Shown here one piece after another: positions 2,344 through 29,505 of a stretch of 32,000 bases of DNA. A program made the translations under genes and the position numbers. The stretch's first letter is position 1. Every line of letters starts with the position of its first letter. The notes under the pieces are model-generated. The model saw only the letters and a program-made list of their open reading frames with translations, was not told the DNA's origin and searched no databases. Origin of the DNA: Candidatus Saccharimonadota bacterium. GTDB taxonomy: Bacteria; Patescibacteriota; Gracilibacteria; UBA4473. The DNA lies in NCBI GenBank assembly GCA_020632335.1, contig JACKFV010000001.1, positions 480,001-512,000 of the forward strand, in the 5' to 3' direction.

Positions 2344-2367
2344 ACAGAAGAACACGAAACCTCCACG

Positions 2368-2395
2368 TTTATAGGCCGATGACCCCGGGTGTCAA
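2368..2395 (-). promoter_or_regulatory. Sigma70-type promoter of tRNA-Asp (TTGACA-N16-TATAAA)
   Basis: On the minus strand TTGACA = 2390-2395, 16-nt spacer, TATAAA = 2368-2373, about 25 nt upstream of the tRNA 5' end. Confidence 0.5.
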
Positions 2396-2404
2396 CCAAA
2401 TGGT

Positions 2405-2417
2405 AATGGTGGGCATG
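2405..2417. repeat. 13-bp direct repeat AATGGTGGGCATG, distal copy of the tRNA-Ile 3' end (att-like)
   Basis: Identical to 3136-3148, which is the last 11 nt of tRNA-Ile plus 2 downstream nt. The two copies bracket the AT-rich segment. Confidence 0.8.
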
Positions 2418-2514
2418 GGGAAGACAGCAATTGAACGGTTAACTAAACGGTGTGATGTCGTTTTTTGTCAGGTTATAAAAGAGTTGAAAGAATACTTGTC
2501 TTCAAATTCAGAAA

Positions 2515-3129
2515 TTATGATGAATAATTTTTTAACGGTTTTAAAATAAGAGTTTCAAATATCAAATTAAAATTCTTTTTTAATTGTGAATCATTTTCTA
2601 CTTTTTCAATATAATTTTTAGCATAATCCCAAATTGCATCTTTAAATGAGTCAACATTAATAAGAAATCCTCCATGGATTGGATTTTTTGAAATAGGTAA
2701 TTCTGAAAAATTAATACAATCAATCAAAAAATGATTACTCATTGAGGTTGAATGGAACAATCCACAACGTGCAAATTTATAAAAATTATCAAAAAATACA
2801 TCTTCAATTTCTTCTTCAAAAAGTTTATTTCCTCTTAAAAATTCAATAAATTCCCTAAGGCTTTTGATAAAAAAATCTTTAGATTTGCCCTGAGAAGTTT
2901 TTCCCTCTAAATACTGACCATGAGTTTCAAAATACATGAGTAATATTGAAAAAACTGACATTCGATAATCAGTATCTTGCTTACTTAAAAGTCTTTCACA
3001 AGGTTTAATCAGCCATTTTTCAACTTGTGACAAAAAAGCTTTTTCATAAGAAACTTGTTTATTCTCTAAATCAGCAAGAGTGATTTCCGATGTCAATCGA
3101 ACCATTCTATTCATTGAGTTGCTTGTCAT
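2515..3129 (-). CDS. Hypothetical protein, islet cargo, AT-rich codon usage (possible HEPN-like Rx4H motif)
   Basis: The ORF-track start at 3147 lies inside tRNA-Ile. The first ATG outside the tRNA is 3129 (MTSNSMNRM...), giving 204 aa. I recognise no family. FARCGLFHS fits R-x4-H. Stop TAA 2515-2517. Confidence 0.6.
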   Translation of the reverse strand: MTSNSMNRMVRLTSEITLADLENKQVSYEKAFLSQVEKWLIKPCERLLSKQDTDYRMSVFSILLMYFETHGQYLEGKTSQGKSKDFFIKSLREFIEFLRGNKLFEEEIEDVFFDNFYKFARCGLFHSTSMSNHFLIDCINFSELPISKNPIHGGFLINVDSFKDAIWDYAKNYIEKVENDSQLKKNFNLIFETLILKPLKNYSS

Positions 3130-3135
3130 GACATA

Positions 3136-3148
3136 AATGGTGGGCATG
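3136..3148. repeat. 13-bp direct repeat AATGGTGGGCATG, proximal copy within the tRNA-Ile 3' end
   Basis: Exact match to 2405-2417. Confidence 0.8.
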
Positions 3149-3214
3149 CGAGGACTTGAACCTCGGACCTCGTCCTTATCAGAGACGCGCTCTAACCAGC
3201 TGAGCTACACGCCC
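3138..3214 (-). tRNA. tRNA-Ile (anticodon GAT), CCA encoded
   Basis: Reverse complement GGGCGTGTAGCTCAGCTGGTTAGAGCGCGTCTCTGATAAGGACGAGGTCCGAGGTTCAAGTCCTCGCATGCCCACCA. Anticodon stem CGTCT/GGACG with loop CTGATAA, T arm CGAGG-TTCAAGT-CCTCG. Confidence 0.93.
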
Positions 3215-4130: not shown

Positions 4131-5237
4131 TTACGAACGCCGCTGCAGCGTAAGCATATAGCCGCACAGCGCAAGGAAAAAGAAAAAGATGAGCCACTGG
4201 CCGCCACTTCCCGCTACTGGTAGTGCTGGGGGGAGTTCGGCTGTTTCGGCATCGTCTGGGGTCTCCGTCGGCGTACTGGCACTGCCCCCCAGCACGGTGG
4301 TGATCTCATCAGGGTGGGTGCGGTCTAGCCACTGGGCCAGCTTAAACCGGCCATCTGAGGGGGCTGTACTCGGTGTCAGCAGCGCCTGCTTTTTCTTATA
4401 GAAGCTCTCTGCAAAGCTCACCGTGGGGTCTTTGGCCCCTCGTCCCACGCTGGTGGTGCCTGTCGGTACAGCGGTTTCTTTGGCCTGGAAGAGCGGCAGC
4501 GCCTCATACACTACCCCCGTCTGTGAGGTTTTCTCACAGGTCTGCGTATCTTCACGGTACTCATAGCGGTACTTGCAGGTGACCCGACACTGCACATTAT
4601 CCACCATCCCATTGGCCACACGGCTGGGGAGAGAGCAGATATTCGGGTAGGCCTTCACCAGCGCCACGGCAGAGAAGGTCGACGGCAGCGTCGCCGTACA
4701 GAGCCCCTCGCTCACCGTGCAGCGCATGCCCTCGCCCAGGTACCACTGCCCCTGGTGCTGTACGGCTATATAGAGCGGCTGGCCGTCCGCCACGGTGGTA
4801 GCAAAGGCGACTTGCGGCGCGGGGGTGATCTCCCAGTTCTGGGCAGTCGCGCCTATGCTATAGCTCTGCAGTACCTCTGTATACTGGAATCCTCCGGTAG
4901 TCTGCTCCAGCGCGGTAGAGAGCTGCAGCGCGTCTGCCTTCGGTTTGGCTGCGGGGAGGAAGCCTCGGAAGACCCCATCCCAGGGAGTGCTAGTGGTTAT
5001 TTGGCTCCCCGGCTGCAGGGCGATTTTGGGGTAGTTTTCGGCACTCTGGGAGTAGCCCAGCACCAGTGATCCAGGCCCCTCCAGCACCGCCACCGTACCC
5101 GCATCACGAGCCTCTCGGGAGGGAAAGGACACCTCATGCGCATAGTAATCATCATAGAGCGGCGCGTCGATGACCTGCGCGGCCACTAAGAGCGGGAACC
5201 CCATCATCGCCGACGCCAGTACAAAAAATGCACGCAT
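4131..5237 (-). CDS. Secreted Cys-rich surface protein with C-terminal sorting signal LPVAG + TM + QRRS
   Basis: N-terminal signal peptide MRAFFVLASAMMGFPLLVAAQV. Eight Cys in the mature central part. C-terminus LPVAGSGG-QWLIFFFFLALCGYMLTL-QRRS (LPVAG = 4209-4223). No family recognised. Confidence 0.8.
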   Translation of the reverse strand: MRAFFVLASAMMGFPLLVAAQVIDAPLYDDYYAHEVSFPSREARDAGTVAVLEGPGSLVLGYSQSAENYPKIALQPGSQITTSTPWDGVFRGFLPAAKPKADALQLSTALEQTTGGFQYTEVLQSYSIGATAQNWEITPAPQVAFATTVADGQPLYIAVQHQGQWYLGEGMRCTVSEGLCTATLPSTFSAVALVKAYPNICSLPSRVANGMVDNVQCRVTCKYRYEYREDTQTCEKTSQTGVVYEALPLFQAKETAVPTGTTSVGRGAKDPTVSFAESFYKKKQALLTPSTAPSDGRFKLAQWLDRTHPDEITTVLGGSASTPTETPDDAETAELPPALPVAGSGGQWLIFFFFLALCGYMLTLQRRS

Positions 5238-5412
5238 GCTAGCATTGTCAGCCAGATCTGTGAAAAAGCAACTATCGCCCCTTGTGCGGAGAGGAATATA
5301 TTGTGAAGAGACATTATAGGTGTGTCACCAGAAGACAGGTATAAAACCACAACAGAGTATTTTGCATAGAGAAATTAGAGACACAAATATTGAACAACCA
5401 GCCAGAAATCAT

Positions 5413-8400
5413 ATGGTGAGAACCGTTATTCATATATTTTTCATGAGAGGAGTATCTCGATTCGGGTTGTGCGTTGTTAGCATTATGGGGGTCAGCATGC
5501 TCACCGGGGCGAGCTTTGCGGCGCCGGTGCCTGATTGTAGTACCACAGAGAGCAGCATTACTGCTAGTGCTGCGGGGGCCTTCACGGCAACGGTCACCCT
5601 GGAGAACACGGGGGACAGCACCGGCTACGCGCCCACAGTGTCTCTGATGCTCCCTCAGGAGCTCACTCTGCTGGGAACTCAGTACCGAGGAGAGACGCTG
5701 CCGGTCTTTCAGCAGGAGGTCTCTAGCACCGGGACGGTTATAGACGCGCTCACCGGGCAAGCTGTGGCGGTCCCCATTGGGCAGACGTACGCCGCGGTAC
5801 TCCTGCCGGAGGGGTCGCTGCCCACGGCGCACCTGGCTCTCTCGCTCGACCTCACTCTGGCCTTTGCTCCAGGAGTCCCCTTAGACACCCCTCTCTCTTC
5901 TTCTCTACAGGTGACGTGCGGTTTTGCTCGTGGAGCCACTGCCGCTGATGACCCTATTGCAGACCCAGCGCTCAGCAGTGGCCCCCTGCTCCTGAGCCTC
6001 ACCCCGAGTAGCGAGCCCCCCGTACCCCCTACCAGTACCGTGAATGCTCTTAGCCTGCAGCAGACCGTGCGAGCCGTGCAGCGTGGGGGCGTCTTCACCC
6101 AGAACCCCAGCCCTACAGACCCGCTGCGTGCGGGAGACATGGTGACCTATAGCCTCACCCTACAGCAGTCCTTGCCCATAGCCGCTACCGAGATAACCCT
6201 GAGCTTCCCTACACTCTTTATAGAGGCTGCGTCTCTCACGAGCGCCGGGACCAGTGTGCTGACGGCTGAGAGCGCCTCTAGCGTCCCCGCGGTGGGGGAG
6301 CTGAGCTATGGGCCGGCAACGCTGCACACGGGTGAGCCGCTCCCGCTGCCACTCCTAATGCCAGACGCCGTGGCGAATACGGCCCTGGTTTCTCTGCCGG
6401 ATACTACGAGCCTTGGGAATACTCTAGAGCTCCTCTATACCGTGCAGATTGCTGATATGCCTGCTATAGATCGGGCTCCGCTGCTGGTCAGCGCTGCGGC
6501 TACCAACGCCGTAGGAGCGGACACCACCGGTATCCTCCAGACCCTCAGCATGCCATCGCTACGGCTGCAGCAGGGCATCATCGCCACTACAGACACTGGG
6601 GCGGTTTTCCTCCCGGTGAATCGCGGCCCGGTGCCCTTCAACCCCATGAGCAACCCGCTGGCCTTCTCTGACGGCTTTGTGTCGGAAGACCTCACCATCG
6701 TACCCATAGACAGTAACGTCGCCGGTGCCAGTGGTGGGGCGCGCATGCGCTACGCGGTGCTGGTGGAGAATCAGGGCTCGGCGCCGGCCTATAACATCAC
6801 GCTGAGCGACAGTCTCTCCGCGATGCAAGAGATCCCACTCGACGAGACAGATGTCAATATCCGTGTGCTGAGCGGTGCAGCGGTAGACCGTACGGCAGCC
6901 TTCACTGGGGGGCTCTTTGGCTACACGGCCATGGGGGCCACAGCAGACGCGTCTAATGCCTCGATACAGCTGACCGAGGGGCGGCTGGAGGGCCTGAGTG
7001 AGCAGACCGACCGTGGGGGGAGCGCTGCGGGGGAGAATATCCTCCTCCTGAGCTATGACCTGCAGCTCAAGACCACTACCCAGCCCCTCATGGTGGTGAG
7101 TAACGCTGCGTCGCTGGTGCGCTACACGGCGGTGGAGAACAGCCCGCAGAACTACATCACCAGCGCTAGCGAGCACACTGACTTTGCTACCGTCTCTCTG
7201 GGAGGGGTAACGATGGAGAAGCGTCTGCTGCCCTCCACCGTGCAAGACCTCGCCCATACAGACAGCACCCTGGGCGACGCCACCATAGGCGAGATGATAC
7301 GCTACCAGCTGCGCTTTACGGCGCCAGAGGGGGACATCCTCACCCCGCGCATCGTGGACTACATCCCTGACGGTATGGCGTACTACAAGCCTACGGGAGT
7401 TCTCTTTAATACCACCTGTGGTGCCAAGCCCTTTGTGGGGAGTATTCCACCACTGAAGGTCCCCGGGACGCCCCCCTTCCCCATTGTGCCCTCGCACCAG
7501 GTGACCTCCCCACTGGGGACTACCGGCATTGCTGGGTCTGGCGAGCCGCTGCGAGTGGAGTTTAATAGTAATATCTCTGTGACGCCTGATGGCGACCCCG
7601 ACACCAATACCTTCTGTATGGAGTATGAGGTTGTAGTGCTGGATATGCCCAGCAATAACGGTCTGCCCAACTACTCCACCCTGCGGACCAACGAGGCTAC
7701 GCTTGAGTATGGGTCACTGGGGCAGAGCATCGGCCCCGTAAGCACCACCGTGAATATTGTGGAGCCCGAGCTGGCCATCACCCAGACGATCACGCCAGCT
7801 ATGGGAGAGGGAGGGGACACCGTCACCATCACCAGCACGGTGCAGCACACCAGCCGCAGCTCTGCTGATGCCTTTGACGTCCGCATCACCAATGGGATCG
7901 TTGACCCCAGTACCGGCATACCTATGGTGCCGGAGCGCTTTATTATCGACGCTGATTTTGCAAATGACGGGATAGATAACGACGGTGATGGACTGCTGGA
8001 TGCCGCCGACCCAGACGAAGTAGCCGGGAGCTTCTATGATGCCACGACTCGTGCGTTCCGTTGGGACCAGACCACCGTGAGCGATGCGCTCTTCCAGCAC
8101 TGGCCCATGGGGAGTACCCGCCGCCTGGCCTACCGGGCCGTGATAGACCAGAGCGTGGTGCCTAATGAGATCATAGATAATAACGCTACGGTAGTGTGGG
8201 ATACCGTCCCTGGGGAGTCTGTCAGCCCCCTGCCAGAACGCCAGAGTGCCGCTGGGGCTGGGGCAAGCTTCCGCGTGCGTAACCTGGAGATAGAGAAAAC
8301 CGCGCCCTTTACCTCCGCGGCGCATACCGGTCAGTCCACTTACTTGGTAGACACGCCCTTCTTGGCCATCGGAGAGCAGGTGACCTTCCGCGTGCGAGTG

Positions 8401-11400
8401 GCCGTGCCCGCTGCCACCATGTATGCCCTCACCATTGCAGACATCATGCCGCGGCCCGTCAGCTCTCCGGCCAGCGCGCCAGACTTCTTCCGCGTAGAGA
8501 GCGTGACCCAGACCCCTACGGATATCTTCACCGAGGAGCCCACCATCACCCTCTCAGATACCAACGCTGATGGGAATAATGACCGCTTTGACATCGTCTA
8601 TCCCCTAGCGATTAAAGACCCCAGCGCGACCGACACGCACCTGGAGTTCCTCGTGGTGGCCACCGTGCTCAATACCCCCGCGACGCGCAACCTCATGACA
8701 CTGCGCAATACCGCGTATGTTTACTTCCAGAACGATAAAGGTGTGTGGTCCAGCCCCGAGCAAGACTCGCAAGACGTGCAGTTTGTGGTGCCGCGGCTGA
8801 CGCTGGAGAAAAGCGCGGATACCACCGAGGTAGAGGCCGGAGACGTCACCCTCATCACCCTCACCTATGACCACCACAATGCCAGCTCTGCGGCAGATGC
8901 CTTCCATCTGCAGCTGGTAGATGCCCTCCCACCAGAGATGCGTGCGGTGGGAGACTTTGGCACCGATGGGGTGGATAACGATGGCGATGGCGCTATAGAC
9001 GAAGCCGATGAGGCTGCAGCGGCTTTCTTTGATCCGGGGACGCAAACGCTCACCTTTAATGACTCCACCACCGACAATCCCGCCTTCACGCAGTATAAGA
9101 AGAGCGATGCTCCTATTACCATTGCTTTCTATGCGCAGTTCACGGCGGAGGTGCGGCCCGCTACGCAGGTGACGAATACCGCGACGCTGACGGCCACCAC
9201 GCTGCCAGAAGACAGCCCCGACGCCCGTACCATCAGCGTGAGTGACCACCATAACTTTACGATAGAGCCGATCACCATCGAGAAGTACGTTGCCAATACC
9301 AGTAATGGTGACACCGGCACCAGTGCCTATACCCCCACACTCACAGACCTCGCTCTGGGGGAGGAGGTGACGTATCATATTCCTATTACGGTGCCAGAGA
9401 GCACCATGACGGCCTTCACGGTGGTGGATACCCTGCCCCCCTTCTTAGAGGCGCTGGGCGGAGAAATCGTCTCTACTGATGGCATCACCCACACCATGAC
9501 TGCCCCCACGCTGGAGGACAGCAATGGCGATGGCACGCTTGACCGAGTGATCTTTGCGCTGGGGACTGTGCGTAATGACGTAGCTGATGACGACACCGAG
9601 ACGCTCCTGCTTAGCGTTACCGCGCGGCTCTTGCCCGTGGAGGGCGTGCCAGCTGGGCGAGCGCTCACCAACACCGTCACCGCCACGTATAGCGAGAACC
9701 CTCACCCTCCCTATACCGCTAGCGCTGTGGTGGAGCCTCTTATCCCCACCCTCCGGCTGGAGAAGACCGCCAGCCCCCTCCTTGCCCTGCCAGGGGAGGA
9801 CGTCACCTATACCCTCACGGTGACGAATATCGGCAATGCCCCTGCCTATGATCTCACCCTTACCGACCCCCTCACACCGGTACTCCATGCAGTAGAGAGC
9901 TTTGCCAGTGATGGGCGAGACGAGACCGGTAATGGCGTTGCTGATGACGCCCCTGAGGACACCGCGCCCTTCTATGACCGTGCGGAGCAGCGCTTCCTCT
10001 GGGACGTCAGCACCACGAACAATGATGCCTTTGCGCGGCTCTTACCGGGGGAGCAGATCACCCTGCAGTTCTTGGCCGAGCTGGACACCAGCGTCACCCC
10101 CGCCAGCAACCAGCAGAATACCGCCACGCTACAGTACCAGGCGCTCCCCGGTCCTCTTGACGCTGCAGCACGCCCCGCACCGGGGATGACCTTCACCACC
10201 AGTGATGATGCGGTGATCACCGTTCCCTTTGACAGTAGCGTGACCAAGGACCTGCGCGACGACGACACCGAGAAACGCATTGGCGATACCATCCCCTACA
10301 CCATACGCCTGCAGGTGCAGGAGGGAGTGCTCGACCCCGTGAGCCTGACCGATACGCTCCCGGCAGGGCTGGCATACCTCCCCGGTACGCTGCGCATTGG
10401 CACCAGCCCCAGCGTGCAATACAGCGCCAGCGTGACCGACTGGGACGCCATTACCCCGGCGTCTGAGGGCATCACTACCGGCGAGAGCCAGACGCTCGAG
10501 CTGCTCCTGGGGCGGATAGAAAACACTGACACCGACCCCAGTAGTGAGGAGTACCTGTGGGTGGATTTTGACGCGCTGGTGATGAACACCGCCGACAACG
10601 CCGAAGGCACCACGCACCAGAATGCCGCCACGGTGAACTTTGCCGGTACGGTGGTGGGGCCCGTACTTGCCCCGGTGGTGACCGTACACGAGCCGCAGCT
10701 CAGCATTCACATCACCCCCAGCTATACCGGGGGGTCTACGGTGCTCTATACCGTGACTATAGCCAGTACGGGCACCCATAGCGCTGACGAGGCCTTTGAC
10801 CTCGACCTCTGGACGCTCTTCCCTCCCGAGCTTACCTATAATGGTGATCTCACACTCGTGAATGGCCACCGCCCCCCTACCGAGATCACCACGGGCCTCC
10901 CACACGTGCAGTGGCAGCTGGAGGACTTCCCGCCTCTCTACACCACTGCTAACCCCTATACCTTCACCTTTACCGCTACGGTAGGGGCAACCGTCACCGC
11001 TGGCCAGAGTATTACCGTGCCAGTAGACCTGCCATATACGTCTCAGCCAGGGGCGCCCGGAGAGCGTATCCCTGGGAATCCCCTCTCTACCGAGCGTACG
11101 GGGGATACCGCGCTTGGTGGTGGGGCCGAGAACGACTACCGCACGCAAGACAGCGCCACCATCACGCTTACTCGGGCAGACCTACGGACGTCGCTCAAGA
11201 CCGTTATAGACGTCAACGGTGGCCTGGTGCAGCCCGGTGACACTCTGCGCTACCGCCTGGAGGTGGTCAATACCGGGAATGTCCCCGCGCGTGACGTGCT
11301 GGTGAGCGACTCCATCCCCGCACAGACCGAGCACTTCACCTGGGTTATTGGCCCAGACGCCACGGTGGTAGACGAGAGTAATACCTCCACCGGTGGAGAG

Positions 11401-13248
11401 TATGACAACGGCCTGGTGCAACTGCGGGGCTTTACGCTGGCGCCTCTGGCAGAAGCACCCGAGAACACGCGTATCTTCGAGTACACCGTGACTGTCGTAG
11501 AGAATGCTCTCCCGCATCAGCCCATTACGAATGCCTTCACCGCGACCACGCCTGATGGCCCTGGAGGGGAAGACAGCACCACCACTACTGTCGAGCAGCC
11601 AGAGCTCAGCATTGTGAAGAGTGCCTTCCCCAGCGGCCCTGTGCACCCCGGTGATCTGGTCACCTATACCGTCACGGTGCAGAATACCGGGAATGCCCCT
11701 GCCAGCAATGTCCTGCTCACTGACCCCCTGCCCGATACCATGCGCTACGTACCCGGGACGCTCTTGCTAGACGATCACCCGCTTACCGATGCCGCAGATG
11801 CCGATGCGGCTGACTATAACCACACCAGCAGTACCGCCGTTACGCTTGCCTGGCCCAGCCTGGCGGTGGAGGAGCAGCTGACGCTGCGCTTCACGGTGCA
11901 GATGGCCGCGCTGAGTGGCCTGGTGACGAATACCGCCACCGTACGGGACGACACCGGCAGAGAGACACAGGGCAGCGCCAGCGTGCTCGTCGTCCCCGAG
12001 GAAGGCACTCTGCCCCCCACCACCCCGGGGACCGTGCCGTCTACGCCGTATGTGATCCGCTACAGTACCCCGCCAGCAGCCGTGCCCACGACTCCCACAG
12101 TAGTGGTAGAGCAAGAGGACCCGAAGGAACCAGACCTCTTCCTCTACCCCAAGCCTACTACGCGGCAGGTGCTCATCACGCATGCCCCGGTCACTAATGA
12201 CCTGGAGCGGGTGGAGATGATCCCCCAGACCGGAGGGATCCTCCAAGAAGCCCTGGCAGCCTCTCGCTTCACCGACGCTCTCCCCACAGACGCCGCCTAC
12301 CTCCCGGCTATAGAACTCACTAACCAGGGCTACATCCAGCCGAATGCAGACCGCGCCATACGCCTGAGCGATGCTATCACTCGTGCGGAGGCCGTGAAGC
12401 TCATAGCGCTAGGGTTTAAGCAGGCCGATGAGTCTATACCGCTGTCTCTCTCCAGCTCCTATACTGATGTGCCCGACGGCCACTGGGCGTTGCCCTATAT
12501 GCACTACGCCGCTGAGCATGGCCTTATGCAGGGTTATGGGAATGGGAGCTTTGGGCCAGAGGATTCCCTTACGCTCTCTCAGGCGGCGGTAGTGCTCAGT
12601 CGTGTCTTTGGCATCACCCCACAGCAGACGGCCACCGGGAGCCACTGGGCGGAGGGAGCACTCCAGTCTCTCCGTGCGCGGGGAGTCCTCACCGACGAGC
12701 TCCTCCCTGAGGCCACGTATGAGTCAGTGCTCAGTCGTGGGCAGTTCTTCACGCTCTTCTACCGGCTGCTAGAGCTGCGCAATGCTGGCCTGCAGACTTA
12801 CTTTGACGCGCTCACGCTGACTATCCCTTCTCTGGAGATAGAGGCTCTTCCGGTGCGCCGCGGGCTTATCAGTGAGCCGAGCATCTGGAAGAAGGCGCTG
12901 GATGAGGGCGCGGTATTCTACCAGTATAAGCAGCCCGGTAACCGCGGGAAGATCGTGCTCTTTGGCCACTCCTTCAGCAACCCGGCCTATGCTCCTGCGC
13001 GCTATGCCTTCACCAGGCTCATCAAGGGCCTCCACCCCGACGATACCTTTGAGATCACCATTGATGGCATTACCCACCTGTATCAGGTCACCCAGCATGA
13101 GGTCATCAGCGCTGAGGAGGTGCGCGTGCTGGAGAGCTTTGACAGTGGGCGGGCTGACATGGTGCTCTTTACTTGTGATACCACAGATCTCTCGCTCCGG
13201 CATGTCTTTGAGGCTGTGCGGCTGGATAGTTACCCGGCACACCGCTAA
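5413..13248 (+). CDS. Giant (~2,610 aa) secreted repeat protein: DUF11/Cna-B-like repeats, Pro/Thr linker, IPQTGG, 3x SLH, C-terminal sortase domain
   Basis: Uninterrupted 7.9-kb frame. ATG 5413 (alternative ATG 5443) precedes the signal peptide ...MRGVSRFGLCVVSIMGVSMLTGASFA/AP. The track start 5320 is a GTG right after a stop. Repeats of the type PGDLVTYTVTVQNTGNAPASNVLLTDPLP. C-terminal modules are listed separately below. Confidence 0.9.
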   Translation: MVRTVIHIFFMRGVSRFGLCVVSIMGVSMLTGASFAAPVPDCSTTESSITASAAGAFTATVTLENTGDSTGYAPTVSLMLPQELTLLGTQYRGETLPVFQQEVSSTGTVIDALTGQAVAVPIGQTYAAVLLPEGSLPTAHLALSLDLTLAFAPGVPLDTPLSSSLQVTCGFARGATAADDPIADPALSSGPLLLSLTPSSEPPVPPTSTVNALSLQQTVRAVQRGGVFTQNPSPTDPLRAGDMVTYSLTLQQSLPIAATEITLSFPTLFIEAASLTSAGTSVLTAESASSVPAVGELSYGPATLHTGEPLPLPLLMPDAVANTALVSLPDTTSLGNTLELLYTVQIADMPAIDRAPLLVSAAATNAVGADTTGILQTLSMPSLRLQQGIIATTDTGAVFLPVNRGPVPFNPMSNPLAFSDGFVSEDLTIVPIDSNVAGASGGARMRYAVLVENQGSAPAYNITLSDSLSAMQEIPLDETDVNIRVLSGAAVDRTAAFTGGLFGYTAMGATADASNASIQLTEGRLEGLSEQTDRGGSAAGENILLLSYDLQLKTTTQPLMVVSNAASLVRYTAVENSPQNYITSASEHTDFATVSLGGVTMEKRLLPSTVQDLAHTDSTLGDATIGEMIRYQLRFTAPEGDILTPRIVDYIPDGMAYYKPTGVLFNTTCGAKPFVGSIPPLKVPGTPPFPIVPSHQVTSPLGTTGIAGSGEPLRVEFNSNISVTPDGDPDTNTFCMEYEVVVLDMPSNNGLPNYSTLRTNEATLEYGSLGQSIGPVSTTVNIVEPELAITQTITPAMGEGGDTVTITSTVQHTSRSSADAFDVRITNGIVDPSTGIPMVPERFIIDADFANDGIDNDGDGLLDAADPDEVAGSFYDATTRAFRWDQTTVSDALFQHWPMGSTRRLAYRAVIDQSVVPNEIIDNNATVVWDTVPGESVSPLPERQSAAGAGASFRVRNLEIEKTAPFTSAAHTGQSTYLVDTPFLAIGEQVTFRVRVAVPAATMYALTIADIMPRPVSSPASAPDFFRVESVTQTPTDIFTEEPTITLSDTNADGNNDRFDIVYPLAIKDPSATDTHLEFLVVATVLNTPATRNLMTLRNTAYVYFQNDKGVWSSPEQDSQDVQFVVPRLTLEKSADTTEVEAGDVTLITLTYDHHNASSAADAFHLQLVDALPPEMRAVGDFGTDGVDNDGDGAIDEADEAAAAFFDPGTQTLTFNDSTTDNPAFTQYKKSDAPITIAFYAQFTAEVRPATQVTNTATLTATTLPEDSPDARTISVSDHHNFTIEPITIEKYVANTSNGDTGTSAYTPTLTDLALGEEVTYHIPITVPESTMTAFTVVDTLPPFLEALGGEIVSTDGITHTMTAPTLEDSNGDGTLDRVIFALGTVRNDVADDDTETLLLSVTARLLPVEGVPAGRALTNTVTATYSENPHPPYTASAVVEPLIPTLRLEKTASPLLALPGEDVTYTLTVTNIGNAPAYDLTLTDPLTPVLHAVESFASDGRDETGNGVADDAPEDTAPFYDRAEQRFLWDVSTTNNDAFARLLPGEQITLQFLAELDTSVTPASNQQNTATLQYQALPGPLDAAARPAPGMTFTTSDDAVITVPFDSSVTKDLRDDDTEKRIGDTIPYTIRLQVQEGVLDPVSLTDTLPAGLAYLPGTLRIGTSPSVQYSASVTDWDAITPASEGITTGESQTLELLLGRIENTDTDPSSEEYLWVDFDALVMNTADNAEGTTHQNAATVNFAGTVVGPVLAPVVTVHEPQLSIHITPSYTGGSTVLYTVTIASTGTHSADEAFDLDLWTLFPPELTYNGDLTLVNGHRPPTEITTGLPHVQWQLEDFPPLYTTANPYTFTFTATVGATVTAGQSITVPVDLPYTSQPGAPGERIPGNPLSTERTGDTALGGGAENDYRTQDSATITLTRADLRTSLKTVIDVNGGLVQPGDTLRYRLEVVNTGNVPARDVLVSDSIPAQTEHFTWVIGPDATVVDESNTSTGGEYDNGLVQLRGFTLAPLAEAPENTRIFEYTVTVVENALPHQPITNAFTATTPDGPGGEDSTTTTVEQPELSIVKSAFPSGPVHPGDLVTYTVTVQNTGNAPASNVLLTDPLPDTMRYVPGTLLLDDHPLTDAADADAADYNHTSSTAVTLAWPSLAVEEQLTLRFTVQMAALSGLVTNTATVRDDTGRETQGSASVLVVPEEGTLPPTTPGTVPSTPYVIRYSTPPAAVPTTPTVVVEQEDPKEPDLFLYPKPTTRQVLITHAPVTNDLERVEMIPQTGGILQEALAASRFTDALPTDAAYLPAIELTNQGYIQPNADRAIRLSDAITRAEAVKLIALGFKQADESIPLSLSSSYTDVPDGHWALPYMHYAAEHGLMQGYGNGSFGPEDSLTLSQAAVVLSRVFGITPQQTATGSHWAEGALQSLRARGVLTDELLPEATYESVLSRGQFFTLFYRLLELRNAGLQTYFDALTLTIPSLEIEALPVRRGLISEPSIWKKALDEGAVFYQYKQPGNRGKIVLFGHSFSNPAYAPARYAFTRLIKGLHPDDTFEITIDGITHLYQVTQHEVISAEEVRVLESFDSGRADMVLFTCDTTDLSLRHVFEAVRLDSYPAHR
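7963..9960 (+). repeat. Three diverged ~315-333-aa protein modules, each with an Asp-rich DG(I/V)DNDGDG-type loop
   Basis: NDGIDNDGDGLLDAADPDE (7963-8019), TDGVDNDGDGAIDEADE (8962-9012) and SDGRDETGNGVADDAPED (9907-9960). Each is followed by F(Y/F)D....(F/L)xW(D)/FND. Confidence 0.7.
12220..12237 (+). other. Internal sortase-recognition-like motif IPQTGG inside the giant protein
   Basis: Codons atc ccc cag acc gga ggg. This is the only [LI]PxTG match I found scanning the whole ORF by eye. Not followed by a hydrophobic segment or basic tail. YPK at 12145-12153. Confidence 0.6.
12268..12780 (+). other. Three tandem SLH (S-layer homology)-like modules of the giant protein
   Basis: FTDALPTDAAYLPAIELTNQGYIQ...ITRAEAVKLIA; YTDVPDGHWALPYMHYAAEHGLMQGYGNGSFGPEDSLTLSQAAVVLSRVFG; HWAEGALQSLRARGVLTDE...LSRGQFFTLFYRLLE. 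Confidence 0.75.
12808..13245 (+). other. Sortase (transpeptidase) catalytic domain at the C-terminus of the giant protein
   Basis: LTIPSLEIEALPV...LDEGAVFY..QPGNRGKIVLFGHS (His codon 12967-12969) ...DDTFEITIDGITHLYQVTQHEV... ADMVLFTCD (Cys 13174-13176) ...LSLRHVFEAVRL (Arg 13198-13200). Order and spacing match the sortase H-C-R pattern. Confidence 0.8.
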
Positions 13249-14187: not shown

Positions 14188-14202
14188 GTGTCTTCTGTAG
14201 CG

Positions 14203-14964
14203 CTACATTTTGTAGGGGGTGAAGTGTACCCCTATGAGAGTGTTGGTGGTTGCTTTACTCCCCCCACTTATGGGGAAGGAGCGTGTCCATTCTATAAAGA
14301 AGGGGAGCTTGCCGGTGGTACATCGTAGGCGCAGCTCGCCCCAGGTTTTTGCCGGGGATTTTCCATCAGCCCATAGACGGTAGTATCCATTATTGAGGGA
14401 GAGTTGCAGAGGCCCCATGACTCTGGTGGCTACCCAGCTGAGCATGAGGCGTTTCTGGTGCGGGTACCTTATCTGATGACTGTAGTAAACGCCACTTCCT
14501 AGGAATTTCACGTTGTACAAGAGGGGAAATCCTCCCAGGGATAGGGTGTCTTTTAGTGTCCTGGTGAGTGTAATCATGAAAGAGAGAAAGTCATAGTCTC
14601 CTCCCACATTACCGGTCACCCATTGGATACCTGCTGATACTCCTACATTTCTTAGATGGGTATTGTATTGGCTCCCTATGCTGTAGTCACTCTCAGCTGG
14701 TTTCCCGAGTACTTGGGCTCTGGTGCCCAAGAGGGTGAAACTCCCGTGAGGGGTCTTCCATCTTGTTTTGAGGTTTACAAGCAGGGTGGGGTTATGAGTG
14801 AGCATCACATTATTAGAGATGCGATACCCGTCGATCCCCATGGCCTCCTGGAGTTGTACCTGTTGGAGATGCCAGTTGAGGCTGTCTGTTTGAGAAATTT
14901 GTGCGCTAGCTTGGCTGATACTCAGCACTAGCATTGCAAAAATAATTACTAGTTTCATTTTCAT
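14203..14964 (-). CDS. Secreted protein with beta-barrel (outer-membrane-protein-like) sequence pattern
   Basis: Signal peptide MKMKLVIIFAMLVLSISQASA/Q. Repeated alternating hydrophobic/polar strands (LQLSLNNGYYRLWA, GELRLRCTTG, FFIEWTRSF, TLIGVHFTPY) with an aromatic residue near the C-terminus. GC about 47%, atypical for this window. Confidence 0.55.
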   Translation of the reverse strand: MKMKLVIIFAMLVLSISQASAQISQTDSLNWHLQQVQLQEAMGIDGYRISNNVMLTHNPTLLVNLKTRWKTPHGSFTLLGTRAQVLGKPAESDYSIGSQYNTHLRNVGVSAGIQWVTGNVGGDYDFLSFMITLTRTLKDTLSLGGFPLLYNVKFLGSGVYYSHQIRYPHQKRLMLSWVATRVMGPLQLSLNNGYYRLWADGKSPAKTWGELRLRCTTGKLPFFIEWTRSFPISGGSKATTNTLIGVHFTPYKM

Positions 14965-15215
14965 TTTGACATAGGAATTGATGGTTCACAAGTATTAAAA
15001 GGCACTAAAATTGGGAAATCTCGTAACGTATCAGAAAATGGCAAGATAAAACACTCTACTTTTTTTGATAGAAAAAACCATATTCACTATTCACTTTGAA
15101 GTCAAAGGTGATGTAAATAGTGACTTAAATCTTGAGAGTTTTACACTTGAAGAGGTTAAATACTACAATGGCTTGTACTTAGCAAAATTAGGAATTATTA
15201 ATCTACCAATTTGAA

Positions 15216-15692
15216 ATGAAGGCAATAATCAAAAAACTACTTAAACCAATAATGTTTATTCGGAGACTATATTGGAGATTACTAAGACCAACTACAATTG
15301 GTGTGCGTGCGCTATTACTTACAAAAGACAAAAAAATTTATCTAATTCTACATAATTACTCAAATAAATTTTATTTACCTGGGGGTAAAGTAAAAAAAGG
15401 TGAGTCATTAGAAAAAGCAGTTAAAAGAGAGATAAAAGAAGAAATTGGCGATGTAGAATATCAGAGTCTTGAAGTATTTAGCACTTACTTTAATAACTTC
15501 GAATTTAAGTGCGATTACATAACGGTCTTTGTGGCATTTATTTCTAACGAGATAAAAACGAAATCAGATTTCATTGAGGTTGACGAAGCAAGAATCTTTA
15601 ATTTGAATAAGTTGCCAGATAATATTTCACCTGGAACTAAAAGAAGAATTTTGGAATACCTTGGTAATAAAGAAAAATCTTTCTCGTGGTAG
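15216..15692 (+). CDS. Nudix hydrolase
   Basis: Complete Nudix box GGKVKKGESLEKAVKREIKEEIG (G-x5-E-x7-REUxEExGU). 158 aa, about 30% GC. Confidence 0.88.
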   Translation: MKAIIKKLLKPIMFIRRLYWRLLRPTTIGVRALLLTKDKKIYLILHNYSNKFYLPGGKVKKGESLEKAVKREIKEEIGDVEYQSLEVFSTYFNNFEFKCDYITVFVAFISNEIKTKSDFIEVDEARIFNLNKLPDNISPGTKRRILEYLGNKEKSFSW

Positions 15693-16492: not shown

Positions 16493-16546
16493 CCAACTCG
16501 GTCTGGCCCCTAGGCTGGGGGTGTCGGTTTTCTTCTGTTTTTTTCG

Positions 16547-19570: not shown

Positions 19571-20866
19571 ATGAATAGATTTTTCATGCAATACTCCGCT
19601 TTCGCTTCTCGGTTTTTCTTCCTCCTGGTGCTGGGGCTAGCGACGCTTGGGTTCTGGCAGTTTGCCCACGGGCAGGCGCTCAGTACTCCTCCTAGCGTCA
19701 TAGACGACGTTACCATCAGCGCTGAGAATGGTGCGGTGACGCTCCAGTGGCAAGAAGCCACTGACCCTGACGGCATCGTCATTGGGTATATGATCTACTA
19801 CGGGCCCGAGAGCGTGACCGCCGAGAACGGCAATACATATGAGAATGAGGTGCTTATACCCGCGCAGAGCAGCTATACCATAGAGGGACTGACCAACGGC
19901 ATGCCCTATTACTTTGCCATTACCCCGGTAGACGACGAGGGCAACGAGGCCGAGACCTACTCGCCGGAGGTGAGCGCTGTGCCGGGCAAGATAAACCCGC
20001 TCGAGCTCCAGACGGCCGAGCAGCAAGACGCCATGACGGTAGTGCTGGCCTTCAGCACCCCTCTGGCGGAGACGACTGACCTCAGCGCCGTCACCATTAC
20101 CGATGAAAGCACCGGCGAGGCCATCACCCTGGAGAGCGTGATGAGTGAGGGCAGCACCCTCACCGTGACCGTGAGCGAGGGCTCATTGGAGCCTAACCGC
20201 CGCTACCGCGTGACGGTACAGGGGCTCAGTGGCGCAGCCGGCCAGCAGATAGTCCAGGGAGTGAAGGACAGCCTGCAATTCCGTGGGAAGAGCTTTTCCC
20301 CTACTACACCTGCGGACACGAGTACTCCCACCACTCCCACCCCAGAGGACACCGCCCCCACCATAGAAGACGCTGTGGGTACGGGCTCCACCATGCTGCC
20401 AGACGACCGCGACTACACCGTGCCAGAGCCAGTGACTCCGGAAGAAACGCCTGCCACTACTCCTGTAGCGCCACTCCCACTGCAGGATGTCCAGAACCTC
20501 AGCGCTGACACCACCAGTTACAGCACCACCGGGGAGGTAACCCTCCATTGGAGCCCCGCGCTGGACGCTAGCGGTGCGGTAACGGGCTATAGTGTGAGCT
20601 GGCAAGCTGAGGGGCAGGGCTACAACGCCCCCACCATGCTGGAGGCTGACGTGAATTCTCTCGTGCTGAAGGGCCTGAAGAATGGAACCTTCTACGATGT
20701 GAAGATCGTGACGCTGGGCAGTAACGGGCAGCAGTCCTCGGGAGCGTACGGCTCCTTCACTACCCACGCTCCGCTGAGCAACACCGGTGGCAGCCTGGTG
20801 GCCGCCTATGCACTGGCGCTCAGTACCCTGGGGGCGGCATACTGGTACCGCCGTCGGCAGTACTAG
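19571..20866 (+). CDS. Surface protein with two fibronectin type III domains, an Ig-like middle domain and the sorting signal LSNTG + TM + RRRQY
   Basis: Signal/TM segment FFFLLVLGLATLGFWQFAHGQA. FN3 patterns (VTLQWQEATDPDGIVIGYMIYYG...YYFAITPVDDEGNE; VTLHWSPALDASGAVTGYSVSW...FYDVKIVTLGSNG). C-terminus PLSNTGG-SLVAAYALALSTLGAAYWY-RRRQY (LSNTG = 20774-20788). Confidence 0.85.
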   Translation: MNRFFMQYSAFASRFFFLLVLGLATLGFWQFAHGQALSTPPSVIDDVTISAENGAVTLQWQEATDPDGIVIGYMIYYGPESVTAENGNTYENEVLIPAQSSYTIEGLTNGMPYYFAITPVDDEGNEAETYSPEVSAVPGKINPLELQTAEQQDAMTVVLAFSTPLAETTDLSAVTITDESTGEAITLESVMSEGSTLTVTVSEGSLEPNRRYRVTVQGLSGAAGQQIVQGVKDSLQFRGKSFSPTTPADTSTPTTPTPEDTAPTIEDAVGTGSTMLPDDRDYTVPEPVTPEETPATTPVAPLPLQDVQNLSADTTSYSTTGEVTLHWSPALDASGAVTGYSVSWQAEGQGYNAPTMLEADVNSLVLKGLKNGTFYDVKIVTLGSNGQQSSGAYGSFTTHAPLSNTGGSLVAAYALALSTLGAAYWYRRRQY

Positions 20867-24038: not shown

Positions 24039-24058
24039 GTACCGGGTAAGTGACGGCC

Positions 24059-25537: not shown

Positions 25538-26182
25538 GTGAAGACTTCTCTACGTCGGTTCGCGCGGGGGGTGCTCTGGGCAGGGGCTTGCCTGGGGGCA
25601 CTCGTGCTGCTGAGCTGGCTGTGGGTATATGGGAATGAGCACGCTGCCGCTACGGAGGACGCTGACTGCGCGGTGGTGTATGGTGCGGCAGTATGGCGAG
25701 ACGACACCCCTAGTGACGCACTCTATGACCGGGTGATGGCTGCGGTGGAGCTCTATGATGCGGGACGGGTACACTGTCTCATCATGAGTGGGGGGCCTAG
25801 TACCTATGGCGCGCATGAAGTAGCGGTGATGACGGCCATAGCGGTGGAGGAGGGCGTGCCGCTGGGCGCCATAGAGCCGGACGACCACGGGGTGAATACT
25901 CGGGCCACGGTGCGGAATATTACTGATGCCTCACGGCGCTACATCATGGTGAGTAACGGGTTTCACCTCGGGCGTATACGGCTTTTGAGCGTGCTTTCGG
26001 GGCTGGACTCCCTGGGAGATCCCCTCGACGTGCAGTACCACGCGGCGGCCTACTTGCACGGGCGCTACCCGAGGGACGACTACTACCACCGGCGAGAAAT
26101 GGTAGCCAACTTCAGCGCGTTGCTGGGCGACTGGGGAGAGGAGATAGCCGACTCTGTGCGTGGTTGGCTTGCCGGGTTATGA
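25538..26182 (+). CDS. DUF218 (ElyC/SanA/YdcF-like) envelope protein
   Basis: N-terminal TM GVLWAGACLGALVLLSWLWVY, then CAVVYGAAVWRDDTPSDALYDRV...CLIMSGG. Start uncertain (GTG 25538 or GTG 25493). The TGA stop overlaps the next ATG (ATGA at 26179-26182). Confidence 0.75.
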   Translation: MKTSLRRFARGVLWAGACLGALVLLSWLWVYGNEHAAATEDADCAVVYGAAVWRDDTPSDALYDRVMAAVELYDAGRVHCLIMSGGPSTYGAHEVAVMTAIAVEEGVPLGAIEPDDHGVNTRATVRNITDASRRYIMVSNGFHLGRIRLLSVLSGLDSLGDPLDVQYHAAAYLHGRYPRDDYYHRREMVANFSALLGDWGEEIADSVRGWLAGL

Positions 26183-27498
26183 GGAGCGGCTACACTGGGG
26201 GCATGCGACGACACTGGTGGTTACTCTTGGCGCTACTCCCGGGGGCTGCTCTGGCGGCGGAGGGAGTGCTGGACTCCTCAGGTCTGGAGATACAGTATGA
26301 GGGCATGGGTATAGATGGCACCAGCTGGCCAGCGGATATTTCCTTCTGGGAGGTGCCCGCGGAGGAGCTGGAGAAGGCCGACAGCCTGCTGCGTACGCAG
26401 CCCAATGTGATCGTGCAGGGGGGCGAGATTGCCGAGAATGCGGTGATCAGTGATGCGCGGGGCATTGTCTACATCGAGCTACCAGAGGGTCTGCGTGTGC
26501 GGGAGCTCACCACGGGGCGCAGTCTGGAGGGGCGGATCCTCGCGCCGGAGGCGGTAGACCGGCCGAGTAGGTCGCCTGAGGGGGGGGTGCTGCACCTCTA
26601 TAGCTTCATGCTCGAGACCAGTACGGGGCGGGACGTTCGCTTCCTCGACGCCTTCACGGCCATTCACCCGAGGATCCTCCTGCGGCGGCAGTACCTCTAC
26701 CCCGAGGAGGCACTGGTGCATACGCCGGGGGTGCGGGTGTTGATGCTAATGAACACCGACGTGACCACCCCCAAGCTCTACCGCTGGGACGAGACCGAGA
26801 AGCTCTGGCAGAAGGTAGGGGGGGCCACCAAGGGCATAGGGGATAACCAGCAGGTGTTTGCGGCTTACCTGGACCGCACGGGGACGTATAGCGTCTTTGA
26901 TATGAACCCTCTGCCCGGGCTGGGCGGCATACAGTACCACGAGAGCGGGGTGATAGAGCTGGTGGAGCAGCCAGGCGGCCCGAGTAGCGAGATACCCGAC
27001 TGGTACAAATATGCCAAGGAGGTGGAGGCGCATATAGAGGATCACACCGAGATAGTAGACGTGCCGAGCTATGAGGAGGTCTTTCCGCTAGAGCATTTCG
27101 TCGATGCCGAGGAGAGTACCACTGGAGGGACGACAGACGAGGAAGAGATGGCCACCATACAGCCGGTGGAGGATACGCGGGTGATACCGGGCATACCGCT
27201 CAGCGGGAGCAGCGCAGCGCCGGCACCGTCTGAGGCTACAGGAGAGACTACAACAGAGGACACGGAGCGGGTGATCCCCGGGCTGGCTGCGGGTACTGCT
27301 GGCAGTGTGACGGCTCCCACCAGCATGCCAGTGAGTGCTGCTAGCACTACTAGTACCACGGCTACAACGTCCTTCCCAGAGACACTGCCCAGCACCGGGG
27401 CGCCTCAGGAACCTCCTGCAAGGAGCGCCTGGGGGACGGTACTGCTGCTGCTCCTCAGCATGGGGGCTGGTGCGGGGGTGTACCTGTGGAGGGTGTAA
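26179..27498 (+). CDS. Secreted surface protein with sorting signal LPSTG + TM + basic end
   Basis: Signal peptide MRRHWWLLLALLPGAALAAEG (alternative ATG 26203). Acidic and Thr/Ser-rich stalk. C-terminus LPSTGAPQEPPARSAWGTVLLLLLSMGAGAGVYLWRV (LPSTG = 27385-27399). No family recognised. Confidence 0.8.
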   Translation: MRSGYTGGMRRHWWLLLALLPGAALAAEGVLDSSGLEIQYEGMGIDGTSWPADISFWEVPAEELEKADSLLRTQPNVIVQGGEIAENAVISDARGIVYIELPEGLRVRELTTGRSLEGRILAPEAVDRPSRSPEGGVLHLYSFMLETSTGRDVRFLDAFTAIHPRILLRRQYLYPEEALVHTPGVRVLMLMNTDVTTPKLYRWDETEKLWQKVGGATKGIGDNQQVFAAYLDRTGTYSVFDMNPLPGLGGIQYHESGVIELVEQPGGPSSEIPDWYKYAKEVEAHIEDHTEIVDVPSYEEVFPLEHFVDAEESTTGGTTDEEEMATIQPVEDTRVIPGIPLSGSSAAPAPSEATGETTTEDTERVIPGLAAGTAGSVTAPTSMPVSAASTTSTTATTSFPETLPSTGAPQEPPARSAWGTVLLLLLSMGAGAGVYLWRV

Positions 27499-28611: not shown

Positions 28612-29505
28612 TTACGAGCTCCATGACGGGAGGTGGTAGTGCTCTTGCAGCGCCTGGACTTTGCTACTATAGGGCTTCCTCAGCACAGTGGTGGTACCAG
28701 GGCACCACTTGACCCCGCAGTGCAGCGCGTGCAGCCGCTCGGCATAGACGGCCACAGCACCAGAGTAGAGCGCTTGCAGCTCGCTCCTGGTACGGGGGGT
28801 GATGGTGGAGATGCCTGGGGGGCGCGTGTCTCGTGGGTCCATGAGGATGCCCAGCAGTGTGGCGGTGGGGCGCGTAGCCTGCACGGCAGCGATGGTAGGC
28901 TGGCTGACGGGAGAAAGGGCGTTGATGAGGACGACGGCTGTAGTGGTGCTGGGGGGCGCTACCGGAGGGAAGGGAGTGGCCTCTAGGCGGTCGCCAGCCA
29001 GGCGTGCCTGCGGGAAGAAGGGCGCTATGGCGGCCAGGCTATGGGGGTCGCGCACGGTCAGCGTGCTTACTGAGGAGCAGACATAGGTGAGCATTTGCCG
29101 CTGAAGATGCGTAACGGGAGGGTCAAAGCCCATGTGCGTGAGCCGCACCGTAGCGGTGGGGAAGAGTCTTCTCAGCCACCACAGCACGGCCGTCCACACG
29201 CGGTAGGCGCTGGTCATGCTGCCGGTGCTCCCGGCCCAGAGCCCCCCACCAGCAAACACCACCTCCGTGATGGGGTAACGGGTGAGGGCGGCTCTATACT
29301 CCGAGGAGAGCGCGTAGTGTAGCAGACTCCGCAGGCCCGCTGGTGGCCAGGGGATGGTACGAAAGGACTGCTCGCAGAACTGCTGGGAGAACTCAGGGTC
29401 ACGGGTCATCACTACGGCGGTGGGGTACTCACGCAGCGCTGCGGCGAGGATGAGCTCATCGCCCAGGTTGCCACTGCCATAGTTCCCGACGAGGAGCGTA
29501 CTCAT
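28612..29505 (-). CDS. csaB: Polysaccharide pyruvyl transferase, CsaB-like
   Basis: N-terminus LLVGNYGSGNLGDELILAAAL and the FAGGGLW...MGFDP pattern resemble the PS_pyruv_trans/CsaB family. Its ATG overlaps the dnaN stop by 1 nt (TAATG). Confidence 0.62.
   Translation of the reverse strand: MSTLLVGNYGSGNLGDELILAAALREYPTAVVMTRDPEFSQQFCEQSFRTIPWPPAGLRSLLHYALSSEYRAALTRYPITEVVFAGGGLWAGSTGSMTSAYRVWTAVLWWLRRLFPTATVRLTHMGFDPPVTHLQRQMLTYVCSSVSTLTVRDPHSLAAIAPFFPQARLAGDRLEATPFPPVAPPSTTTAVVLINALSPVSQPTIAAVQATRPTATLLGILMDPRDTRPPGISTITPRTRSELQALYSGAVAVYAERLHALHCGVKWCPGTTTVLRKPYSSKVQALQEHYHLPSWSS

Follow-up and report, generated by a model that had tools for sequence, protein, structure and literature searches.

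The stretch of DNA analysed here (the window) comprises 32,000 nucleotides of contig JACKFV010000001.1 (assembly GCA_020632335.1, positions 480,001 to 512,000 of the forward strand), and this report concerns one large gene within it. The gene encodes an adhesin-like protein in which a long stalk is followed by a sortase recognition motif of the LPXTG type, three S-layer homology (SLH) domains and a sortase domain. It appears to specify a sortase system with substrate, wall anchor and enzyme in one polypeptide, conserved in Peribacteria, Peregrinibacteria and Gracilibacteria. A first-pass annotation made from the letters alone had described a single uninterrupted frame, and the open reading frame (ORF) at 5320-13248 (+), with 2,642 codons, bears this out. 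The strings it had quoted, IPQTGG, LTIPSLEI, PGNRGKIVLFGHS, MVLFTCD and LSLRHVF, were all found in the translation, the last four in the sortase part of the tail. The NCBI entry MCB9809775.1, 'DUF11 domain-containing protein [Candidatus Peribacteria bacterium]', is the window protein (P0001) at 100% identity, encoded on a contig of 630,865 bp. The features of the gene, with residues numbered from the first GTG, are as follows.

5320..13248, + strand: whole ORF, 2,642 codons counted from the first GTG, uninterrupted
5443..5520, + strand: Sec-type signal peptide MRGVSRFGLCVVSIMGVSMLTGASFA, cleaved before AP, residues 42-67, read by eye from the translation
5521..11988, + strand: passenger, a stalk like those of fibrillar adhesins, residues 68-2223 (~2,150 residues; Pfam, NCBIfam)
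9271..9693, + strand: TIGR04226 domain, best of four stretches, residues 1318-1458 (137.9 bits)
9751..10134, + strand: DUF11/CLIPPER domain, residues ~1478-1605 (domain match)
11197..11562, + strand: DUF7927 or CLIPPER-like domain, residues 1960-2081 (domain match)
11605..11964, + strand: DUF11/CLIPPER domain, best stretch, residues 2096-2215 (Pfam)
11989..12159, + strand: linker rich in Pro and Thr, residues 2224-2280 (translation)
12160..12219, + strand: conserved pre-motif, residues 2281-2300, ending in THAPVTNDLERVEM (alignment, model)
12220..12234, + strand: IPQTG, LPXTG-type sortase recognition motif, residues 2301-2305 (translation, family alignment)
12238..12795, + strand: three SLH domains forming one pseudo-trimer, residues 2307-2492 (Pfam, profile, fold)
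12796..13245, + strand: sortase catalytic domain, an eight-stranded beta-barrel, residues 2493-2642 (Pfam, model, fold)
12967..12969, + strand: catalytic His, residue 2550, in LFGHSF (29/29, aligned with SrtA H120)
13174..13176, + strand: catalytic Cys, residue 2619, in LFTCD (28/29, aligned with SrtA C184)
13198..13200, + strand: catalytic Arg, residue 2627, in SLRHVF (29/29, aligned with SrtA R197)

The start had been placed at 5413, but ATG 5443 is the likelier one because a typical signal peptide results from it; ATG 5413 and the NCBI call at 5485 are the alternatives. Read by eye, this peptide has a basic n-region followed by a hydrophobic core and an A-x-A-like cleavage site. The passenger had been described as about 2,200 residues of DUF11/Cna-B repeats. 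That description holds for residues 1318-2215 or so, to which the recognisable stalk domains (DUF11/CLIPPER and the isopeptide-pilin type TIGR04226) are confined, whereas the N-terminal ~1,200 residues of the passenger gave no Pfam match. Over the whole protein, DUF11 (PF01345) reached 124.8 bits in three stretches, the DUF11-type repeat TIGR01451 173.8 bits in four, and the isopeptide-forming fimbrial D2 domain TIGR04226 137.9 bits in four against a cut-off of 30. DUF11 is the CLIPPER domain, an isopeptide stalk domain (PMC12617251), and with tandem isopeptide-type domains in a long, predicted secreted protein the passenger has the makeup of a CLIPPER/DUF11 fibrillar adhesin stalk. The linker contains a YPK (in FLYPKP) that might be taken for a pilin motif; it is not kept in relatives and was treated as chance.

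The C-terminal domain had been called a sortase from its sequence pattern, and profile and fold comparisons agree. Pfam Sortase (PF04203) matched residues 2500-2633 above its gathering score of 26.6, with 45.8 bits when the whole protein was scanned and 51.6 bits when the tail was scanned alone. A structural model of the module was computed with AlphaFold. From the single sequence, the tail was modelled with a mean predicted local distance difference test (pLDDT) of 33.8; the model became confident only with an alignment of 29 family modules, at a pLDDT of 91.3 and a predicted template modelling score (pTM) of 0.91, a value that, in a chain of two domains, implies that these are fixed relative to each other. 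It contains the eight strands of a sortase fold over residues 2497-2639. In Foldseek searches of the PDB, its C-terminal half matched solved sortases of classes A, C and E, for example 7f87 (E 7e-9, target template modelling (TM) score 0.77), 2kw8, 2xwg and 5cuw, with E values from 7e-9 to 6e-8, and the family profile matched several sortases at E of about 1e-9 to 1e-8.

The residue counts for the triad, the SLH domains and the motif given here come from this alignment of 29 modules, 25 of them passenger-bearing, whose identity to the module of the window is 22-49%. When Staphylococcus aureus SrtA was placed in register by the family hidden Markov model (HMM), its H120, C184 and R197 fell on LFGHSF, LFTCD and SLRHVF, in the canonical order that had been anticipated. 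In module numbering, W243, H270 and R347 are invariant and C339 is present in 28 of the 29 sequences. The invariance of His and Arg together with the near-invariance of Cys argues for selection on catalysis. Ser takes the place of the catalytic Cys in one member, P0020 (514 residues), and no other member shares its motif FPQLG, in which Leu replaces Thr. This single case (n=1) is no more than suggestive and would fit a joint decay of enzyme and substrate site.

The enzyme fits none of the established sortase classes. The models for classes A-F and GN (NF033745-NF033748, NF058671, TIGR03784) gave 17-22 bits against cut-offs of 140-166, the best being class C at 21.6 bits, so that membership of classes A-F was rejected; the general model TIGR01076 was not reached either (28.6 versus 39.35). 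Four other family members likewise stayed under the cut-offs of these models. We place the enzyme on a deep, unclassified branch of the sortase superfamily. As the first-pass annotation had noted, it has no membrane anchor of its own: no hydrophobic segment occurs between IPQTG and the C-terminus, and the region in between folds as the SLH triad in the model.

The three SLH modules reported earlier were likewise found. Pfam SLH (PF00395) scored 49.6 bits in the whole protein and up to 58.2 bits otherwise (cut-off 20.8), the SLH half of the model matched the SLH trimer of Paenibacillus alvei SpaA (6cwc/7sv5) with TM scores of 0.79-0.84 in Foldseek against the PDB, and the family profile matched the SLH domains of Bacillus anthracis Sap at E 3e-26. 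SpaA binds the pyruvylated secondary cell wall polymer (SCWP) through its SLH domains, and its ligand determinants are the Arg of the TRAE motif in SLH1, an SLH2 without this Arg, an Arg in SLH3 and a GLMQG loop (PMC6081394); the Arg at the TRAE-type position contacts the pyruvate of the polymer. The corresponding positions in the window protein read TRAE in SLH1, TLSQ in SLH2 and SRGQ in SLH3, with GLMQG in SLH2. Across the modules, Arg occupies the TRAE-type position in 22/29 SLH1 domains, at most 1/29 SLH2 domains and 26/29 SLH3 domains. Judged by sequence, the triads of the window and of the family thus reproduce the SpaA pattern of predicted determinants for binding pyruvylated SCWP.

The pentapeptide IPQTG, as part of IPQTGG (residues 2301-2306, 12220-12237), lies directly ahead of the SLH triad. 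The predicted scissile bond is T2304-G2305, with VEMIPQT on the upstream side and GGILQEALAASR opening the downstream side. A classical sorting signal consists of an LPXTG-type pentapeptide, a hydrophobic segment and a positively charged tail; here the pentapeptide is present, whereas neither a hydrophobic segment nor a basic tail follows it, and 336 residues of folded SLH and sortase domains take their place. The pattern Φ-P-x-T-G is common to 25/25 of the passenger-bearing modules, with P in 25/25, T in 23/25, G in 25/25 and x variable; Φ is I in 15, L in 4, F in 3, and V, W and Y in one each. Its distance from the C-terminus is 277-347 residues in all but P0010, where a C-terminal extension accompanies a distance of 416. 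The motif is preceded by the conserved pre-motif R-x2-[DN][DN]-Φ-x5, in which Arg at -11 is kept in 18/25, [DN] at -8 in 21/25, [DN] at -7 in 22/25 and a hydrophobic residue at -6 in 25/25. In the model, the pre-motif sits on the body of the module with a pLDDT of 87-90.

How widely the module occurs was examined with an exhaustive HMMER search of the 182-residue tail against 1.84 billion cluster representatives, which gave 301 hits at E <= 1e-3. The family was delimited with HMMs built from the module on the best 150 of these 301 hits: about 36 representatives exceeded 120 bits on the sortase part, nearly all of them with the SLH part, and the others had at most 85 bits. Word-index homolog searches found no match for the 182-residue tail or for a sortase-only profile, and with a full-module profile they returned only SLH proteins. 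The shared module measures ~340-360 residues and stands behind unrelated passengers of 70 to 4,480 residues. About 20 members are long (761-4,811 residues) and carry it at the extreme C-terminus; the passengers include CLIPPER stalks, SdrD-B repeats, right-handed beta-helix repeats and cysteine-rich repeats. Where organisms are named, they are Candidatus Peribacteria, Peregrinibacteria and Gracilibacteria. The database names of the members ("DUF11", "DUF2341", "S-layer homology domain-containing", "cysteine-rich repeat protein") include none that mentions a sortase.

One genome, GCA_020631075.1, has three copies, two of which (1,698 and 4,811 residues) lie ~10 kb apart while the third is a stand-alone protein of 358 residues on another contig. 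The two fused copies, on contig JAHDHX010000003.1 (L089/L090), have different passengers and are separated by genes for glycosyltransferases, a MotA/ExbB-like protein and several large proteins without a Pfam match; the stand-alone copy is at locus L084. These data also bear on the trivial explanation that an assembly error or a frameshift joined two genes in the window. We found nothing in its favour. The same architecture recurs in ~20 long proteins whose samples and sources (NCBI, JGI, ENA, Logan) are independent of each other, one of them, QQR83574.1 from Peregrinibacteria, on a contig of 1.34 Mb. P0002, the closest relative, has the same passenger, linker, motif, SLH domains and sortase domain, all in a single frame. 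With the architecture recurring in independent assemblies, ~36 representatives sharing the module and one genome holding three copies, an artefact is excluded for practical purposes.

Variation within the family is consistent with the SLH triad serving as the anchor of the enzyme. In six members the SLH region is degenerate (SLH scores of 50-82 bits), and 3/6 of these carry a hydrophobic or amphipathic extension at the C-terminus; members with a full triad lack extensions of this kind. The restriction of such extensions to members with a degenerate triad fits an anchoring role. P0010 (2,194 residues) has a shortened SLH region, and its sortase domain is followed by a linker of ~120 residues and then by a membrane segment and KKHKE; here the SLH anchor appears to have been exchanged for a membrane anchor.

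The module also exists without a passenger. In the stand-alone proteins P0019, P0023, P0024, P0033 and P0134, a signal peptide or anchor runs directly into the post-motif sequence. No clue to a substrate came from the genes next to P0019 and P0134, and P0024 (L085/L086) directly follows a protein of 649 residues with a classical LPTTG and membrane segment. P0023 and P0033 are preceded by genes that end at the motif. In L081/L082, from two sequencing runs, the upstream gene encodes a protein of 127 residues with an N-terminal hydrophobic segment and the end TREANNLELLSVLPLTGVLR before the stop; its terminus NNLELLSVLPLTGVLR gives LPLTGVLR as the last residues. After the in-frame TAG and nine bases follows the SLH-sortase gene of P0023, with a well-formed signal peptide of its own. 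In L091/L092, from two other samples, the upstream gene terminates in TLTRSEIMIDELPTTGK, that is, in IDELPTTGK before the stop, and a spacer of 72 nucleotides separates it from the gene of P0033, which also has its own signal peptide. The two split loci are independent. A protein that lacks a membrane segment and ends 1-3 residues past an LPXTG-type motif, encoded beside a sortase gene, is how a substrate would be expected to look. The fused, split and neighbouring arrangements thus link the enzyme to Φ-P-x-T-G substrates in three configurations.

At L081 (9630-9645), only the TAG and nine bases lie between the substrate gene and the SLH-sortase gene, and both use one reading frame; this points to a fused gene that split recently or, conversely, to a fusion in progress. 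Read-through of the TAG was considered and rejected: a well-formed signal peptide begins at the ATG beyond it, and at the second split locus an out-of-context spacer of 72 nucleotides intervenes.

The following neighbouring genes bear on how the module may work.

4131..5237, - strand: secreted protein with LPVAGSG, a hydrophobic segment and QRRS, a possible trans substrate
19571..20866, + strand: fn3/Big_5 surface protein with LSNTGG, a hydrophobic segment and RRRQY, a possible trans substrate
26164..27498, + strand: secreted protein with LPSTG, a spacer, a hydrophobic segment and WRV, a possible trans substrate
28612..29505, - strand: weak match to a polysaccharide pyruvyl transferase of the CsaB type (18.2 bits versus 25.3)

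The first three are the classical sorting-signal proteins that the first-pass annotation had listed, and its statement that the 32 kb hold no stand-alone sortase also stands: the six-frame translation of the window contains no second sortase-like ORF. None of the three proteins has the pre-motif of the family.

One explanation of these arrangements is that a separate membrane sortase cuts the motif and that the SLH-sortase module is a mere retention signal, enzymatically irrelevant to its own protein. A sortase A has been reported in Peribacteria genomes (PMC4736985), and the motif resembles an ordinary LPXTG. Under this explanation, however, neither the invariant His and Arg nor the Cys in 28/29 modules, with the selection on catalysis that they indicate, would be accounted for. 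The classical substrates of the window do not have the family pre-motif, and the split substrates lack any retention element, yet adjoin an SLH-sortase gene. We consider it quite improbable.

A second explanation keeps the enzyme active, but only in trans. The module would then be an SLH-tethered housekeeping sortase, the protein would stay intact and held by its SLH domains, and the internal Φ-P-x-T-G would be a tethered pseudo-substrate or lid that controls the active site, as the lid of class C sortases does. The [DN][DN]Φ of the pre-motif loosely recalls the lid motif of class C enzymes. Three classical sorting-signal proteins with no other sortase in the 32 kb are what such an enzyme would call for, and so is the stand-alone P0024 beside a classical LPTTG protein. 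There is, in addition, a second, looser group of passenger-less proteins, in which a signal peptide is followed by three SLH domains that a long low-complexity linker separates from the sortase domain. This group (P0028, P0050, P0054, P0056, P0057, P0063, P0069, P0112, P0132, P0138 and P0149; 380-540 residues) has the active-site signature YTCWP and reaches 65-85 bits on the sortase model of the present family, versus >120 for members. Its existence indicates that the SLH-tethered, membrane-free sortase is a wider theme; no description of such passenger-less proteins was found in the open-access literature. On the other hand, a trans-only enzyme would make a copy for each adhesin needless, yet one genome has two fused copies and one stand-alone copy. 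The upstream proteins of the split loci stop right behind the motif (in LPTTGK and LPLTGVLR), as a substrate would and a lid would not, and the stand-alone enzymes lack the supposed lid altogether. We regard a purely trans-acting role as unlikely. The first-pass annotation had offered self-anchoring or self-processing on the one hand and an SLH-tethered housekeeping sortase on the other. Of the two, the former is favoured because 25/25 passenger-bearing modules have Φ-P-x-T-G and two split forms end right after it.

We propose, with a probability of roughly 0.6, that the last ~360 residues are a portable, self-contained sorting module that takes the place of the LPXTG motif, membrane segment and basic tail of a classical substrate. 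The domain identities, the conserved triad, the positioned motif, the portability of the module and the split forms are observed; from them we infer the cleavage, its cis or trans mode, the acceptor and the binding of the SLH domains to a pyruvylated polymer. In this proposal, the Sec system would export the protein and the signal peptide would be removed, after which the SLH triad would dock the protein non-covalently on wall polysaccharide. The sortase domain would then attack T2304-G2305 of IPQTG, about 200 residues upstream of it, on its own polypeptide or on a neighbouring copy. A thioester would form between Cys2619 and the new C-terminal Thr of the adhesin, and an envelope amine, most likely of peptidoglycan, would accept the adhesin and fix it covalently. 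The remaining G-SLH-sortase fragment would stay bound to the wall, where it may process other substrates, for example the three nearby classical sorting-signal proteins. A more specific form of the proposal, to which we give only tentative credence, is a natural chain of substrate, anchor and enzyme that reacts intramolecularly in one turnover, in the manner of Hedgehog proteins, and passes the adhesin from its wall-bound position to the mature wall or another acceptor that is not lipid II.

The same cleavage could instead serve release. Sortases hydrolyse their substrates if no nucleophile is present, and an enzyme held away from the membrane is also away from lipid II. If water resolved the thioester, the adhesin would be shed or passed to non-covalent partners while the SLH-sortase part stayed on the wall, functionally like the cleavage of an autotransporter passenger. 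All evidence for cleavage under the sorting-module proposal counts equally for release. Against it, long isopeptide-stabilised stalks like these passengers are typically found in adhesins that are anchored and bear load (PMC12617251); shedding would defeat the purpose of an adhesin, and sortases as a family are transpeptidases. Autoproteolytic release therefore seems to us an improbable outcome.

Several points weigh against the sorting-module proposal itself. Cleavage, on which it turns, is a deduction. A sortase that is bound to the wall and free of the membrane would have difficulty in reaching lipid II, which is the canonical acceptor. Peribacteria genomes are reported to encode a conventional sortase A as well (PMC4736985), and that enzyme could cut the motif instead. 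The pentapeptide is less certain in the model than its surroundings, with a mean pLDDT of 66 for the block, and the conservation of its P and G could be structural. P0037, which belongs to the family, has an N-terminal extension of ~100 residues without Φ-P-x-T-G. Finally, the ORF at 28612-29505 (-), which would make the SLH ligand if it is truly a pyruvyl transferase, reached only 18.2 bits with PS_pyruv_trans, under the cut-off of 25.3.

Textbook sortases are stand-alone membrane enzymes whose substrates are recognised by a tripartite C-terminal signal. The present family shares with the classical systems (SrtA, classes A-F) the superfamily, the fold, the His-Cys-Arg register and the type of motif, and classical LPXTG cargo likewise consists of Ig-like, isopeptide-stabilised adhesin stalks with an N-terminal signal peptide. 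It differs in that the presumed substrate itself carries the enzyme as its C-terminal domain, where the classical enzyme is a separate membrane-anchored protein, in that the SLH triad and the enzyme replace the hydrophobic segment and basic tail, and in the extra pre-motif. The triad itself is the three-SLH pseudo-trimer known from Sap of B. anthracis and SpaA of P. alvei, with Arg in SLH1 and SLH3 but not in SLH2 and with GLMQG as in SpaA. In Sap and SpaA, however, the triad is N-terminal and anchors its own protein for good, whereas here it lies between cleavage motif and enzyme and would anchor the enzyme, and the cargo only transiently. The second SLH-sortase group is also secreted, SLH-tethered and without a membrane anchor, and is set apart by having neither a passenger nor a motif.

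Hedgehog/Hint proteins and autotransporters combine a variable N-terminal passenger with a conserved C-terminal domain, and Hedgehog, by way of a thioester, cleaves itself and hands its passenger over to a nucleophile. The likeness to the present family is one of logic only, in that a portable C-terminal module would cleave its junction with variable passengers; there is no kinship in fold or sequence. A further parallel is BISOP, an engineered self-cleaving fusion tag in which a sortase and an LPXTG motif on one chain cut themselves apart (PMC2901362), so that such a reaction is chemically feasible. BISOP is man-made and has its sortase N-terminal to the motif, whereas the family is natural, has the reverse order and adds a wall-binding domain. 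We found no paper describing the adhesin-SLH-sortase architecture in open-access text, the words "SLH", "S-layer" and "fused" are absent from the text of a 2021 sortase review, and the database names omit the sortase.

If the sorting-module proposal is true, it would mean covalent surface display without membrane retention and perhaps without lipid II; were the intramolecular form true, a display route independent of both lipid II and the membrane would have evolved in ultra-small bacteria of the Candidate Phyla Radiation (CPR). It suggests a way in which these genome-reduced, host-dependent bacteria may display giant adhesins, the longest of 4,811 residues, that probably have a central part in attachment to host cells. 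Protein-ligation technology could also make direct use of a compact natural sortase that processes itself and has a defined, extended recognition element, and the natural split variants would be ready-made pairs of enzyme and substrate.

The remainder of the window is largely a housekeeping region, with genes for the C-terminus of SecA, RpoD, a DsbA-like protein, FolD, a nucleotidyl transferase, RNase J, Pth, a Band 7 protein, HtpX, pyruvate kinase, DnaN and an amino-acid kinase. The best relatives of the DnaN, at 37-38% identity, are in metagenome-assembled genomes of Gracilibacteria, Peribacteria and Peregrinibacteria. The source bacterium belongs to the CPR (Patescibacteria). A possible envelope-polymer cluster is made up of the weak pyruvyl transferase match (28612-29505, -), a de-N-acetylase of the PIG-L family (24050-25024, +; 92.5 bits) and a DUF218 protein (25493-26182, +); the deacetylase would generate free sugar amines.

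Two segments stand out by their guanine-plus-cytosine (GC) content. At 2267-3214 the GC fraction is 0.39 versus ~0.6 around it, and an ORF of 210 residues without a Pfam match (2515-3147, -) lies between tRNA-Asp (2267-2343, -) and tRNA-Ile (3138-3214, -); the segment has the look of a short piece of DNA inserted next to a tRNA gene. A second island of low GC (0.30-0.43) at 14200-16500, directly downstream of the adhesin/FolD pair, was probably acquired horizontally. It holds three ORFs, which encode a secreted protein of 253 residues without a Pfam match (14203-14964, -), a NUDIX hydrolase (15216-15692, +; 54 bits) and a protein of 268 residues without a match (15686-16492, +).

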